Below are positions 2,861 through 13,106 of a DNA stretch of 19,183 bases, one piece after another. The stretch lies in assembly GCF_006345805.1 (NCBI RefSeq), contig NW_021824320.1, forward strand, positions 1-19,183, in the 5' to 3' direction. The DNA is from Octopus sinensis. Lineage: Eukaryota. Positions within the stretch are counted from its first letter, which is position 1, and each line of letters begins with the position of its first letter. Made by a program: the position numbers and the translations under genes. Below the pieces are notes generated by a model. That model ran no database searches, was not told the origin of the DNA, and saw only the letters and a program-made list of their open reading frames with translations.

Positions 2861-3092
2861 GACGGGCGAGCTGGCAGAAACGTTAGCACGCCGGGCGAAA
2901 TGCGTAGCCGCATTTCGTCTGCCGTTACGTTCTGAGTTCAATCTCTGCCGAGGTCGACTTTGCCTTTCATCCTTTCGGGGTCGATTAAATAAGTACCAGT
3001 TACGCACTGGGGTCGATATAATCGACTTAATCCGTTTGTCTGTCCTTGTTTGTCCCCTCTGTGATTAGCCCCTTGTGGGTAGTAAAGAAATA
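2861..3092 (+). mobile_element. tRNA-headed SINE, family B, monomer, followed by a (TTA)n tail (3093-3141)
   Basis: A-box-like TGGCAGAAACGTTAG and B-box-like GAGTTCAATCTC. The body is the near-exact reverse complement of the array unit at 10532-12297 and is homologous to 7150-7369. Confidence 0.85.
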
Positions 3093-3500: not shown

Positions 3501-3698
3501 CTTTTACTCTTTTACTTGTTTCAGTCATTTGACTGCAGCCATGCTGGAGCACCGCCTTTAGTCGACCAAATCGACCCCGGGACTTATTCTTTGTAAGACT
3601 TATTCTATCGGTCTCTTTTGCCGAACCACTAAGTAACGGAGACGTAAACACACCATCATCGGTTGTCAAGCAATGCTAGGGGGACAAACACAAACACA

Positions 3699-3742
<44 letters not shown>

Positions 3743-3931
3743 CATATATACATATATACATATATACGACAGGCTTCTTTCAGTTTCCGTCTACCAAATC
3801 CACTCACAAGGCATTGGTCGGCCCGGGGCTATAGCAGAAGACACTTGCCCAAGATGCCACGCAGTGGGGCTGAACCCGGAACCATGTGGCTGGTTAGCAA
3901 GCTACTTACCACACTGCCACTCCTGCGCCTA
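3501..3931 (-). mobile_element. tRNA-headed CORE-like SINE, family A, with an internal (CA)/(TA) microsatellite
   Basis: The reverse complement matches 9171-9571 over its length. Minus-strand head GGCGCAGGAGTGGCAGTGTGGTAAG, B-box GGTTCAGCCCC, and CTTGGGCAAGTG resembling the MIR/CORE motif. Confidence 0.85.
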
Positions 3932-4167: not shown

Positions 4168-6150
4168 ATGAGCAAGACGTCCTCTTCAAGAAAGTGTTGC
4201 GTTAATTCTCCAAACGTGCTTTGTTATGTTTCTGGAGAATACACATTACCTGAAAATCGAAAAAAAAACATCACTGATTTTGCTGAAAGAAAGTAAATGA
4301 CATATTTTGGGGGTCAAACTGGGAAACCAAGATAAATATTGGGCACCGCATAGTGTCTGCAAACAATGCACAGAACATTCGCAACAATGGACTAAAGGGA
4401 CAGGGAAAAGTATGAGGTTTGCTACACCAATGGTATGGCAGGAGCCCTTTAGTCACGTGGACGACTGCTATTTTTGTAACCTAAATTTGAAAGGTATTAA
4501 CCGGAAAAATCGATAAACACTTGTCTATCCTAAACTTGCCTCTTCTATTAGACCGGTTCCAATCAGTGGAGAGCTTCCTGTTCCTGTCTTCAATGTCTTG
4601 CCTCAGATAACTTCACCCTCAACTGAAGAAATTTCATCACCTGAAGATGACATTAGATAGAGATCAAGACTTTTCAGTTGAGACTTTACCTCAAGTATTC
4701 TCCCAGGTAGATCTGAATGATCCAGTTCATGACTTGAACCGTCAAAAAAATTGTACTGAACCTTTGGATTCTCGACTGAAAGAGAAGAAAGAGAAGAATA
4801 TTCTAGAGAATGGTGTCCTTGTAATATTTTATCGGAGTCAGTATGAAGAGTTCCTTTCTTTTTTTATAAAAGAGGAAGAATTGGTTTACTGCAGGGATGT
4901 CAGTGGACTTCTTAATAAATTTGGCATTGAGGAATACAAATCAGAGGAATGTCGTCTTTTCAGAGACGGCTCTAAGCGTAGTTTAAAATATCTATTGTTG
5001 CACAATGGAAATGTGTATGGATCTGTCTCATTTGGCCACTCAACAACTCTGAAGAAAAATATGAAAAAGTTAAGTTGGCTATAAATGGGTCATCTGCGTT
5101 GACTTAAAGATGGTGAAGTTTCTCATGGGACAGTGATCTGGTTATACCAAATACCCATGCTTTCTTTGCATGTTGGACAGTTGAGACCGAGTAAACCACT
5201 ATGTTAAGAAAGACTGGCCGCCTCGAACAAATATGGCTCCTGTATATTGGAAGAACCTTTAGCTGAGCGAGATAAGATAATTTCCCCCCACCCTTTGCAC
5301 GTCAAACTCGGATTGATCAAGCAATTCGTCAAAGCTCTTGATGAAAATGGGGAGTGCTTCAAGTATATATGCGGTGTATTTCCAGACTTGACGATTGAAA
5401 AACTTAAAGCAGGAATTTTTGATGGGCCACAGATCCGTAAGCTCTTGAAGGACACAAATTTCGTGAAAGTAATGAACGAAAATGAAGCATCAGCTTGGCT
5501 AACCTTTACAGAAGCAGTGCAAAATTTCCTTGGGAAACACCAAAGTGAAAACTATAAAGACCTTGTTACCAACTTGATATCAACTTTTCGTGAGATTGGC
5601 GCGGGACACAGGTTCGTTCCAGGGTTACAGCCCAGCAATTTTTAGAGGAAGGGACAGGACAAATTAATTGCGTCGACCCCAGTACATGACTGGTATTTTA
5701 TTTTATGTTGTGCATACTATAAATTCCTCGATTTTGTTTTTATATTTAACTCGATGTGGCGTGATGCAGAATTGTTTGCGCGTCGGACAAAATGCTCAGC
5801 CACATCTCTTCCGGCTCTTTACGTTCTAAATTCAAATTTCACCGAAGTCAGCTTTGTCTTTCATCATTTCAGAGTCGATAGAATAAAGTACCAGTCATGC
5901 ACTGGGGTCACTGCAAGACTAACCTCTTCAATCAAAATGCATTATGTTTTTAGTCATCTTGATTGTTTTCCTGAAAATCTCGGAGATGTTAGCGATGAAG
6001 AAGATGAACAATTCCATCAAGGAGATGGAAACTCGGTACCAAGGACGTTGGGATGCTGTGATGATAGCAGACTATTGCTGGTGTTTAGAATGGGATATTC
6101 CTGTTGCTCAACATTCATGGTGCACAAAGAAATGTCAATTTATTCCTTGA
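4168..6150 (+). pseudogene. Chapaev3-like DDE transposase pseudogene (multiple stops and frameshifts, one 330-bp insertion)
   Basis: Motifs occur in order across frames: ATG 4168 ..KCCVNSPNVLCYVSGEY; GVKLGNQDKYWAPHSVCKQC; PMVWQEPFSHVDDCYFC (N-terminal Zn finger); LFRDGSKRSLK (D 4965); WVICVDLKMV (D 5101); YTKYPCFLC; LHVKLGLIKQFVKALD; KAGIFDGPQIR; SIKMHYVFSH; SDEEDEQFHQ (E 6006); METRYQGRW..ADYCW; stop at 6150. The CxxC and HxxxxH motifs are those shared by CMC and Transib/RAG1-type transposases. Premature TAA at 4294. Confidence 0.9.
5602..5931 (+). repeat. Templated insertion: copy of 9072-9794 without the SINE at 9171-9571
   Basis: Near-identical to 9072-9172 plus 9572-9794. It interrupts the transposase between FREIGA and SIKMH. 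Confidence 0.92.
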
Positions 6151-6263
6151 ATTTTCTGCCAAAAGTCTTAACCAATGTGCATTTTCAATTTTCAATTTTT
6201 ATTTGTACTTGGTATTGTTTTGTGTTACGCTCTCTTTATTGATTCATACTATATACCTTTTGT

Positions 6264-6647
6264 GGAGGCGCAATGGCCCAGTGGTTAGGGCAGCGGACTC
6301 GCGGTCGTAGGATCGTGGTTTCGATTCCCAGACCGGGCGTTGTGAGTGTTTATTGAGCGAAAACACCTAAAGCTCCACGAGGCTCCGGCAGGGATGGTGG
6401 TGATCCCTGCTGTACTCTTTCACCACAACTTTCTCTCACTCTTACTTCCTGTTTCTGTTGTACCTGTATTTCAAAGGGCCGGCCTTGTCACTCTCTGTGT
6501 CACGCTGAATATCCCCGAGAACTACGTTAAGGGTACACGTGTCTGTGGAGTGCTCAGCCACTTACACGTTAATTTCTCGAGCAGGCTGTTCCGTTGATCG
6601 GATCAACCGGAACCCTCGTCGTCGTAACCGACGGAGTGCTTCCATCC
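6264..6647 (+). mobile_element. tRNA-derived SINE, family C, with an 11-bp target-site duplication
   Basis: Head GGAGGCGCAATGGCCCAGTGGTTAGGGCAGCGGACTCG with B box GGTTTCGATTCCC. TSD ATACCTTTTGT at 6253-6263 and 6648-6658. A second copy lies at 12578-12948 (-). Confidence 0.92.
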
Positions 6648-7149: not shown

Positions 7150-7368
7150 AAGGCGGTCTGCTGGCAGAATCGTTAGCACGCTGGACGACATGGTTAGCGG
7201 CATTTCGTCTGTCTCTACGTTCTGAGTTCAAATGCTGCCGTGGTTCGACTTTGCCTTTCATCCTTTGGGGGGTCGATAAAATAGTACCAGTTGAGATATT
7301 GAGATCGATGTAATCGACTATACCCCGCCTCCCGAAAATTTCAGGCCTTGTGCCTATAGTTGAAAAGA

Positions 7369-7369
<1 letters not shown>
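7150..7369 (+). mobile_element. SINE family B, older copy with a different 3' tail
   Basis: Aligns to 2861-3030 (TGGCAGAATCGTTAGCACG..CATTTCGTCTG..TACGTTCTGAGTTCAAAT..GACTTTGCCTTTCATCCTTT). It then ends CCCCGCCTCCCGAAAATTTCAGGCCTTGTGCC followed by (ATT)n. Confidence 0.85.
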
Positions 7370-7370
<1 letters not shown>

Positions 7371-7464
<94 letters not shown>

Positions 7465-9170: not shown

Positions 9171-9571
9171 GCAGGAGTGGCTGTGTGGTAAGTAGCTTGC
9201 TTACCAACCTCATGGTTCCGGGTTCAGTCCCACTGCGTGGCATCTTGGGCAAGTGTCTTCTACTATAGCCTCGGGCCAACCAAAGTCTTGTGAGTGGATT
9301 TGGTAGACGAAAACTGAAAGAAGCCCGTCGTATATATGTATGTATATATATATATGTGTGTGTGTATGTTTGTGTATCTGTGTTTGTTCCCCTAGCATTG
9401 CTTGACAACCGATGCTGGTGTGTTTACGTCCCCGTCACTTAGCGGTTCGGCAAAAGAGACCGATAGAATAAGTACTGGGCTTACAAAGAATATGTCCTGG
9501 GGTCGATTTGCTCGACTAAAGGCGGTGCTCCAGCATGGCCGCAGTCAAATGACTGAAACAAGTAAAAGAGT
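9171..9571 (+). mobile_element. SINE family A, inserted without a TSD
   Basis: Homologous to 3501-3931. The empty site TTGTGC|ATACTAT is preserved at ~5708-5720. Confidence 0.9.
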
Positions 9572-9613
9572 ATACTATAAATTCCTCGATTTTGTTTTTC
9601 TATTTAACTCGAT

Positions 9614-9815
9614 GTGGCGTGATGCAGAATTGTTTGCGCGTTGGACAAAATGCTCAGCCACATCTCTTCCGGCTCTTTACGTTCTAAATTCAAATTTCAC
9701 CGAAGTCAGCTTTGTCTTTCATCATTTCAGAGTCGATAGAATAAAGTACCAGTCATGCACTGGGGTCACTGCAAGACTAACCCCTTCTCTTCAAAACAAC
9801 TGATCTTAAGCCCTA
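9614..9815 (+). mobile_element. Highly diverged SINE family B copy, with an inverted 3' fragment of the same family at ~9095-9165
   Basis: TACGTTCTAAATTCAAATTTCACCGAAGTCAGCTTTGTCTTTCATCATTTCAGAGTCGAT..AAGTACCAGT..CACTGGGGTC aligns to the family B body. Confidence 0.75.
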
Positions 9816-10531: not shown

Positions 10532-12347
10532 GATTATATCGACCCCAGTGCGTCACTGGTACTTATTTAATCGACCTCGAAAGGATGAAAGGCAAAGTCG
10601 ACCTCGGCGGAATTTGAACTCAGAACGTAGCGGCAGACGAAATACCTATTGCTTTACTACCCACAAGGGGCTAAACACAGAGGGGACAAACAAGGACAGA
10701 CAAACGGATTAAGTCGATTATATCGACACCAGTGCGTAACTGGTACTTATTTAATCGACCCCGAAAGGATGAAAGGCAAAGTCGACCTCGGCGGAATTTG
10801 AACTCAGAACGTAGCGGCAGACGAAATACCTATTGCTTTACTACCCACAAGGGGCTAAACACAGAGAGGGGACAAACAAGGACAGGCAAACGGATTAAGT
10901 CGATTATATCGACACCAGTGCGTAACTGGTACTTATTTAATCGACCCCGAAAGGATGAAAGGCAAAGTCGACCTCGGCGGAATTTGAACTCAGGACGTAA
11001 CGGCAGACGAAATACCTATTCTTTACTACCCCAAGGGGCTAAACACAGAGGGGACAAACAAGGACAGACAAACGGATTAAGTCGATTATATCGACACCAG
11101 TGCGTAACTGGTACTTATTTAATCGACCCCGAAAGGATGAAAGGCAAAGTCGACCTCGGCGGAATTTGAACTCAGAACGTAGCGGCAGACGAAATACCTA
11201 TTGCTTTACTACCCACAAGGGGCTAAACACAGAGGGGACAAACAAGGACAGACAAACGGATAAGTCGATTATATCGACACCAGTGCGTAACTGGTACTTA
11301 TTTAATCGACCCCGAAAGGATGAAAGGCAAAGTCGACCTCGGCGGAATTTGAACTCAGAACGTAGCGGCAGACGAAATACCTATTGCTTTACTACCCACA
11401 AGGGGCTAAACACAGAGGGGACAAACAAGGACAGACAAACGGATTAAGTCGATTATATCGACACCAGTGCGTAACTGGTACTTATTTAATCGACCCCGAA
11501 AGGACGAAAGGCAAAGTCGACCTCGGCGGAATTTGAACTCAGAACGTAGCGGCAGACGAAATACCTATTGCTTTACTACCCACAAGGGGCTAAACACAGA
11601 GGGGACAAACAAGGACAGACAAACGGATTAAGTCGATTATATCGACACCAGTGCGTAACTGGTACTTATTTAATCGACCCCGAAAGGATGAAAGGCAAAG
11701 TCGACCTCGGCGGAATTTGAACTCAGAACGTAGCGGCAGACGAAATACCTATTTCTTTACTACCCACAAGGGGCTAAACACAGAGGGGACAAACAAGGAC
11801 AGACAAACGGATTAAGTCGATTATATCGACACCAGTGCGCGTAACTGGTACTTATTAATCGACCCCGAAAGGATGAAAGGCAAAGTCGACCTCGGCGGAA
11901 TTTGAACTCAGAACGTAGCGGCAGACGAAATACTATTGCTTACTACCCACAAGGGGCTAAACACAGAGGGGACAAACAAGGACAGACAAACGGATTAAGT
12001 CGATTATATCGACACCAGTGCGTAACTGGTACTTATTTAATCGACCCCGAAAGGATGAAAGGCAAAGTCGACCTCGGCGGAATTTGAACTCAGAACGTAG
12101 CGGCAGACGAAATACCTATTCTTTACTACCCCAAGGGGCTAAACACAGAGGGGACAAACAAGGACAGACAAACGGATTAAGTCGATTATATCGACACCAG
12201 TGCGTAACTGGTACTTATTTAATCGACCCCGAAAGGATGAAAGGCAAAGTCGACCTCGGCGGAATTTGAACTCAGAACGTAGCGGCAGACGAAATACTGC
12301 TAAGCATTTCGCCCGGCGTTGCTAACGTTTCTGCCAACTCGCCGCCT
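10532..12347 (-). repeat. SINE-B concatemer: one tRNA-like head (12298-12347) plus ~9.6 head-to-tail units of 182-186 bp
   Basis: GATTATATCGAC recurs at 10532, 10716, 10902, 11084, 11267, 11451, 11635, 11819, 12002 and 12184. The unit equals the 2861-3092 monomer minus its first ~50 nt. Confidence 0.97.
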
Positions 12348-12465
12348 TTTTTTATTTTGTTTCTCACACAGTCACTTGCGTAGGTTTGCACCAGCGCCCT
12401 CTGAGAGGATGTGTTTCTGCAATCAGAAGCTAAATCAACTTTAGTGCTTATTTTCTATTTTTAAA

Positions 12466-13106
12466 CGTCGGTGTCTTTTGCTGAACCCCTGGTTACAGGG
12501 GCGTAAACAAAACAGTACCGATTCTCAAACGGTAGAGTAAGAGCAAACATACATGCACACATACACACACATCTTTTGAAGCACTCCGTCGGTTACGACG
12601 ACGAGGGTTCCGGTTGATCCGAATCAACGGAACAGCCTGCTCGTGAAATTAACGTGTAAGTGGCTGAACACTCCACAGACACGTGTACCCTTAACGTAGT
12701 TCTCAGGGATATTCAGCGTGACACAAGGCCGGCTCTTTGAAATACAGGTACAACAGAAACAGGAAGTAAGAGTGAGAGAAAGTTGTGGTGAAAGAGTACA
12801 GCAGGGATCACTACCATCCCTGCCGGAGCCTCGTGGAGCTTTTAGGTGTTTTCGCTCAATAAACACTCACAACGCCCGGTCTGGGAATCGAAACCGCGAT
12901 CCTACGACCGCGAGTCCGCTGCCCTAACCACTGGGCCATTGCGCCTCCACACACACACATACACATGCACACACACAACTGTCTTCAGTACAGTTTGCAC
13001 TCTCAAATTAAACTCACAAACCATTGGTCGGTCCGTGGCAGCTGCAGCAGAAGACATATACTCGAGGTTCCGTGAAGCGGGACAGAACTTTGAACCTCAG
13101 GGTTGC
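12466..13106 (-). mobile_element. Old diverged SINE family A copy, split by a SINE C insertion
   Basis: The left part TCGGTGTCTTTTGCTGAACC..GCGTAAACA aligns to ~3608-3650. The right part ACTCACAAACCATTGGTCGGTCCG..GCAGAAGACA aligns to ~3802-3843. Confidence 0.75.
12578..12948 (-). mobile_element. SINE family C, second copy
   Basis: Reverse complement of 6264-6643 with few substitutions and one ~12-bp deletion. Possible TSD ACACACACAT lies within the host microsatellite. Confidence 0.92.

Follow-up and report, generated by a model that had tools for sequence, protein, structure and literature searches.

On a contig of the octopus Octopus sinensis (the window, i.e. the complete stretch of 19,183 bp analysed here), the body of a SINE is repeated in tandem on the minus strand behind a single head. 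The locus raises the question of how an interspersed retroposon turns into a regular tandem array, and why the joints lie at one internal base of the element. A preliminary description, made from the letters of the window, had suggested that the units were copied from a circle in which the 3' end of the SINE is joined to the loop of a hairpin in its head. In this work we analysed the array together with its relatives in 2.72 Gb of genome sequence.

The array was confirmed on the assembled contig. Behind the SINE head come nine full units of 182-186 bp and a truncated tenth (Table 1), as described before, and TRF found a period of 184 with 9.6 copies and 97% matches. SINE positions are numbered on the 233-nt majority sequence of 33 monomers. 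The units start at position 50, where they had been said to start, but their end had to be moved: the last bases of the SINE are AAAGAAATA, and the junction's GG represents positions 50-51 of the next unit. The self-complementary junction GAAATA-GG-TATTTC exists as claimed, with a predicted 5-bp stem and 4-nt loop, at the corrected position given in Table 1. Six of the nine full units end in GCAATA, which the preliminary description had given for most of them, and six have C229 in common, while unit 3 retains the family base. All nine share T at position 152 (GACACCAGT on the plus strand), whereas unit 10 and the monomer of the window have G, the allelic difference pointed out earlier. That monomer is indeed the same SINE, although its strand is plus, opposite to the array. 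Unit 10 is marked by private variants at 119 and 142 and by an end short of the tail, two features already recognised; private changes are present both in it and in the array head, and it is likely to be the resident SINE copy. No partner was found for the 16-mer that precedes the head, and the array has no downstream target duplication. The flank of the array is single-copy in the assembly; public contigs matching the locus at 100% identity cover next to none of the GA-rich flank and are uninformative on its presence.

Table 1. Coordinates of the array and of other features (positions in the window unless a locus is named)
Feature	Position	Strand	Basis or remark
16 bases preceding the head, starting AGAAA	12349..12364	-	candidate upstream copy of the target duplication around the resident
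SINE head, positions 1-49 (A-box region and 5' arm of head hairpin)	12299..12348	-	substitution at 12, 1-bp insertion
Predicted 13-bp head hairpin, SINE 33-62	12286..12315	-	fold of family majority, pair counts
Unit 1, SINE 50-233	12117..12298	-
Unit 2	11934..12116	-
Unit 3, family-type tail GAAATA	11750..11933	-
Junction GAAATA-GG-TATTTC, units 3/4	11742..11755	-	predicted fold
Unit 4	11566..11749	-
Unit 5	11382..11565	-
Unit 6	11199..11381	-
Unit 7, two 1-bp deletions in common with unit 1	11017..11198	-
Unit 8, three substitutions and CT insertion	10831..11016	-
Unit 9	10647..10830	-
Unit 10, SINE 50-164, without tail and without downstream target duplication	10532..10646	-
Tail-A monomer of this SINE with G45/C50 head variant; AAT microsatellite after it	2861..3092	+
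Older relative with other tail (tail B)	7151..7428	+
216-bp duplication (98.6%) bearing old SINE fragment	5714-5929 and 9572-9787
Dispersed repeat family, two copies in opposite orientations	6261-6642 and 12578-12951		common in fetched loci
Second dispersed repeat family, two opposite copies	3505-3926 and 9171-9572		common in fetched loci
Two open stretches, 157 and 145 codons	4611-5642	+	possibly a decayed transposase
Young site-specific L1/Tx1-like LINE, example from L352-L371, where several copies have intact ORF1 and ORF2	L357:3901-9326		inside SINE at position 50

The copies of this SINE are dispersed and carry target duplications, as in tRNA-derived SINEs, and the element may resemble the Deu- or Nin-domain SINEs or the octopus OR1/OR2/OK families. 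As to the description of the head as tRNA-like, motifs resembling the A and B boxes were recognised by eye at about 12-24 and 77-87, so that the putative B box lies inside the unit and the head would be only one part of a tRNA-like region. ARAGORN called no tRNA, and the ends of the SINE pair in the predicted fold. The hairpin noted earlier at the unit start was refined to a predicted stem of 13 bp (33-45 with 50-62, loop TAGC); the site 49|50 falls on the boundary between loop and 3' arm, and the unit begins with the first base of that arm. A two-sided change of the hairpin, from a T45-G50 wobble to G45-C50, was seen in 48 of 177 heads, with loss of the target GG. Two different tails, A and B, end the arrays; the tail-A majority sequence contains no run of four T. 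Exact tails number 79,244. The tandem unit is shorter than the SINE and there are eight middle units, the definition of a SINE-derived satellite (sSat) being at least four. Rfam gave no match at E<=10 over 11600-12400, and the hammerhead core CTGANGA is found on neither strand of a unit dimer, in agreement with the earlier remark that no ribozyme is recognisable.

The search for the junction that had been proposed as a check showed it to be fixed and recurrent at thousands of unlinked loci: a 28-base junction sequence had 19,737 exact matches genome-wide and a control had 0. Set against the number of exact tails, this means that a quarter of them run into position 50. Arrays make up 19 of 66 loci chosen by head alone (about three in ten). 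Most loci were sampled from one contig (C1) and many were chosen by exact patterns; elements close to locus edges were left out of the counts, and divergence at positions 51-62 was excluded because these bases are fixed by the search patterns. The parse of 543 elements yielded 298 internal tail-A ends, of which 234 continue at position 50, 40 at 16-17 and 10 at 44. The tail-B family is joined to position 50 in 4 places versus 3,059 exact tails. A second fixed junction, at position 17, is used by the C221 tail subfamily (L173-L192); it has 2,528 exact matches, with the downstream unit older in 20, younger in 8 and tied in 6.

The 3' end of a LINE adjoining SINE position 50-51 was seen at one of these loci (L173). 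Its best 40 matches are 98-100% alike, and in 29 of the 30 fetched among them the SINE follows directly 3' of the LINE from position 50, the other one having no detectable tail. Base 50 after the LINE is G at 19 and C at 10 of the 29 loci. All 20 copies fetched whole are about 5.4 kb long and have a uniform 16-bp target duplication, with SINE 1-65 upstream (17-65 in one) and SINE 50 onward downstream. Several keep open frames for a 520-aa ORF1 and a 1134-aa ORF2; the latter contains endonuclease, RT and zf-RVT domains (Pfam) and is closest to the L1 ORF2 among solved structures. ORF1 and an L1-like ORF2 with APE endonuclease, RT and zinc finger, together with a sequence-specific target, are traits of the Tx1 clade, and on this architecture and targeting we call the LINE Tx1-like. 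Of its last 35 bases 28 are identical to the SINE tail, the SINE therefore having its 3' end in common with a LINE. The common tail, site and duplication length suggest that the SINE is mobilised by this LINE or by one closely related to it. With 99-100% identity to one another, the LINE copies are younger than the majority of SINE copies, which are about 3% diverged; the true partner may therefore be an ancestral or a sister element.

The two elements leave different traces at this base. The LINE, which has no homology to the head, always leaves a head and a duplication, whereas the SINE nearly never leaves a second head (54 versus 19,737 matches, with patterns of unequal stringency). The G45-C50 head variant is entered by the LINE but absent from SINE junctions: unselected SINE junctions have GG in 78 of 83 and CG in none, while C50 occurs in 24 of 85 monomer heads and at 10 of the 29 LINE loci. 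The SINE is therefore not simply copying the choice of the LINE. For a sister LINE with a related tail (L287-L311), almost every copy in which the tail was detected runs into TATC repeats; because it sits in these repeats and has 0 matches with GGT after the tail, this LINE was discarded as the origin of the position-50 junction. LINEs from a generic RT search were discarded as lacking the SINE tail, and an RTE LINE, which had been expected as the partner, was dropped.

Insertion takes place at SINE position 49|50 and duplicates 16 bp. Monomers and arrays alike lie between target duplications of 12-22 bp (mode 16), which were detected for 65 of the 131 elements that have both ends. The bases after a terminal tail A are GGTAT in 34 of 155 cases, TATAT in 19 and AGAAA in 11; since the upstream copy repeats the first four of them in 26 of 31 GGT cases, they represent target DNA. 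At internal joints C221 goes with AGAA (33/41) and T221 with GGT (221/254), and this association between tail allele and target class is present in unique DNA and inside SINEs alike. Of the 458 GGTATTT sites in 1 Mb of SINE-enriched sequence, 217 are followed by the rest of the SINE. At L022 and L071, arrays have inserted into a different family of short repeats, at an AGAAG site.

A full SINE nested behind a head piece of 62-71 nt was matched 54 times, at 32 loci. Thirteen of the 20 nested loci examined consist of head 1-62/68, a full copy and then the resident from position 50; the resident is often older (83% and 84% versus 96%), and at L156 and L095 private resident bases are duplicated by the nested insertion. 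Public contigs mapped to one young-in-old array were mostly repeat copies and gave no empty site either way. Tandem head pieces of 65-67 bp, up to about a dozen, occur at L146, L158, L172 and G000:C3430:1375-2203, some of them 100% identical and within one target duplication.

The preliminary description had offered microhomology-mediated duplication followed by unequal crossing-over as the ordinary alternative. Such chance duplications at each locus, without targeted insertion, would account for the stepwise sharing of variants in long arrays, and unequal exchange likely explains their growth. They leave the fixed junction unexplained: a single junction dominates, the first and last units frequently belong to different subfamilies, and LINE and nested SINE copies use the identical base. 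As the origin of the junction this explanation is exceedingly improbable and already contradicted, and it stands only for expansion.

The remaining 7 of the 20 nested loci have no resident body after the insertion, which indicates that composites are also copied whole; composites within one target duplication and without resident body were found at L143, L146, L166 and L170. Pol III read-through at a small number of composite master loci could have spread one ancestral junction, and the lack of a four-T run in tail A is compatible with this. Young tail-B last units also have the A allele at 63 in 16 of 38 cases versus 2 of 20 monomers, while retaining B alleles at 143-159. Both this allele and the GG bias fit a donor RNA running past the tail and templating the junction, and whole-composite copying fits too. 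On the other hand, each last unit has diverged in its own way (of the 51 in tail-B arrays, even the two most similar are 4% apart), and nested copies duplicate private resident bases. Master loci are therefore unlikely as the general explanation, and their copying is likely a contributor, not the main source. Two further candidates were rejected. Cleavage at position 50 with template jumping does not agree with the starts of young clusters, 245 of 287 of which lie at 1-10; 11 of 287 start at 41-60, some of these being alignment breaks, and there is no headless peak at 50. The idea that the target provides a Pol III terminator found no support, with T at target position 8 in 10 of 64.

The ages of the units bear on the order of events. 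The last unit is more diverged than the first in 35 versus 4 of 41 tail-A arrays (5.1% versus 2.9%, monomers 3.1%) and in 44 versus 5 of 51 tail-B arrays; by nearest-neighbour distance it is the older one in 25 versus 7 and 45 versus 3, respectively. The age gap measured by CpG decay is clear in tail-B arrays (p 8e-7) and not significant in tail-A arrays (p 0.13). In arrays of 2-4 units, neighbouring units differ by 9.4-9.9% (medians, 127 pairs) versus 9.8% between loci. Since last units are older and neighbours are as unlike as random pairs, short arrays represent separate insertions into older residents. The array heads are mosaics, resident-like at 21 and incoming at 45/50: those of tail-B arrays have the B-type T21 in 19 of 51 versus 7 of 85 A monomers, and the A-specific G45/C50 in 12 of 51 versus 0 of 86 B monomers. 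A test for hidden duplication was negative, with matching non-majority alleles at 63-66 of first and last units in 18 of 84 (0.21) versus 0.18 after shuffling, and head divergence was not correlated with that of the last unit (p 0.10 and 0.24). These two results speak against the reading by targeted insertion, as do the CpG outcome in tail-A arrays, the unit ages at position-17 junctions and the youth of the LINE copies.

Arrays of 5 or more units are more uniform, neighbours differing by 2.3% (47 pairs). Within the fetched loci, long arrays show variants common to subsets of units, chimeric units and two-block arrangements, and the 65-bp head duplications likewise expand into arrays. The nine units of the window multiplied locally, because their own haplotype occupies 5 junctions in this array and 14 single sites in other places, so the earlier view that they come from one template was upheld. 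The pattern likely reflects a young insertion, in a resident whose tail was lost, that was duplicated locally step by step.

That this template was a circle is a different matter. Rolling-circle reverse transcription of a 184-nt circular SINE RNA (or a DNA circle) would add nine units to a resident SINE in one event. It would agree with the local haplotype, including T152 in nine units and not in unit 10, with the homogeneity of arrays of 5 or more units and with the capacity of the junction to fold into a small hairpin. Reads spanning the junction would be expected from linear arrays as well. The short arrays, however, are heterogeneous and made of unrelated copies with older last units; their heads contain alleles of the incoming element, which a headless circle would lack, and family-type and derived tails lie side by side in the window. 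Head duplications form arrays as well, no starts accumulate at position 50, and the same base is used with a 16-bp duplication by a LINE that has no SINE head. Besides the absence of Rfam matches and of a hammerhead core, fold prediction gives the circular form a lower stability (-35.3 kcal/mol) than the linear form (-41.6 kcal/mol). A circular template is thus very unlikely. At this one locus some differences between units may be assembly errors, which would leave room for a one-step origin, a disfavoured reading. A related concern is that assembly inflated the copy number and that the true allele has fewer units, since the contig is small (19 kb) and several single-base indels seem to resemble long-read errors. 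Substitutions common to subsets of units, and comparable long arrays on chromosome-scale contigs, make this most improbable.

The array is thus quite probably composed of SINE bodies joined at the site of the LINE, the enzymes of which (or of its sister) inserted the SINE into a resident, followed by local expansion. After nicking at position 49|50, the SINE, which has a LINE-type 3' end, would be reverse-transcribed at that nick. The 5' part of the cDNA may then pair with the matching head of the resident, as in R2, resulting in one chimeric head followed by the new body and the old body, with no second head. Two 65-bp heads that were later reduced to one by deletion would lead to an identical structure. 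Each junction would restore the target, and read-through RNA extending into GGUAUUU likely aids priming. Finally, adjacent 184-bp repeats would expand by unequal exchange or slippage into nine near-identical units. We lean, on balance, towards a closed loop, in which an active LINE lands in the SINE that depends on it, the SINE targets its own copies through R2-like homologous joining and rebuilds the target each time, and read-through RNA of the arrays steers and overwrites the junction, so that a dispersed SINE becomes thousands of satellite seeds.

This provides a concrete and testable path by which an interspersed retroposon could become a tandem repeat, a connection described as thinly evidenced in the sSat paper (PMC10702118). 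It also provides a compact LINE with intact frames, a site-specific footprint of 16 bp and a target in tens of thousands of copies, as well as a natural case for the open question of homology-based joining of non-LTR 5' junctions. The share of head-selected copies found in arrays (about three in ten) affects how repeats are annotated and dated in this group of animals. Our literature survey, which covered few subscription journals and had Repbase/Dfam entries and supplements outside its scope, did not find the system, and the accessible portions of PMC13282606, PMC6007223, PMC4758252, PMC3531059 and PMC4824008 contain no description of these arrays.

Several known systems resemble it in part, as judged from the available text of the reports. 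With crocodilian SINEU and Tx1-Mar, and with target-specific Tx1 LINEs (Tx1 in Tx1D, Keno, Kibi, Koshi), it has in common a LINE and its SINE that use one target in another repeat, duplications of about 16 bp and sequential insertion resulting in tandems (PMC4494074); in the octopus, the target is the SINE itself and the inserts are homologous to it, mostly without second head or visible duplication. R2 RNA containing upstream target sequence yields uniform, precise 5' junctions and a minority of tandem duplications (PMC3774820), and the octopus pattern parallels this annealing of cDNA and target, except that the homology of R2 comes from ribozyme-cut 28S co-transcripts and here from the SINE's own head, with no ribozyme seen. 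The squamate SINE-derived satellites likewise have units shorter than the SINE and more uniform longer arrays, but their seeding is attributed to unequal recombination or same-locus insertion, with no targeting LINE named in the text available (PMC10702118). The TSD1-(SINE)n-TSD1 elements of the blood clam share a headed first unit, head-truncated later units and one flanking duplication (PMC11481361); their inner units lack the 3' tail and 64 elements are reported, compared with full inner tails and about 20,000 junctions here. Rodent Dip/B2 multimers also hold a large share of the copies, with up to eight units, but consist of entire SINEs arranged head to tail, for which the authors do not settle on an origin, while the octopus joint is internal and fixed (PMC8466645). 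The likeness to non-LTR retrozymes put forward earlier extends to tandem units of 170-400 nt (PMC7229834, 10.64898/2026.07.22.740005), 184 bp here, and ends with the absence of a hammerhead, the Pol III-type head, the LINE-like tail and the target duplications, so that the SINE of the array is not a retrozyme. By analogy, the system appears to work like SINEU/Tx1-Mar targeting combined with R2-type 5' joining, yielding sSat-like arrays.
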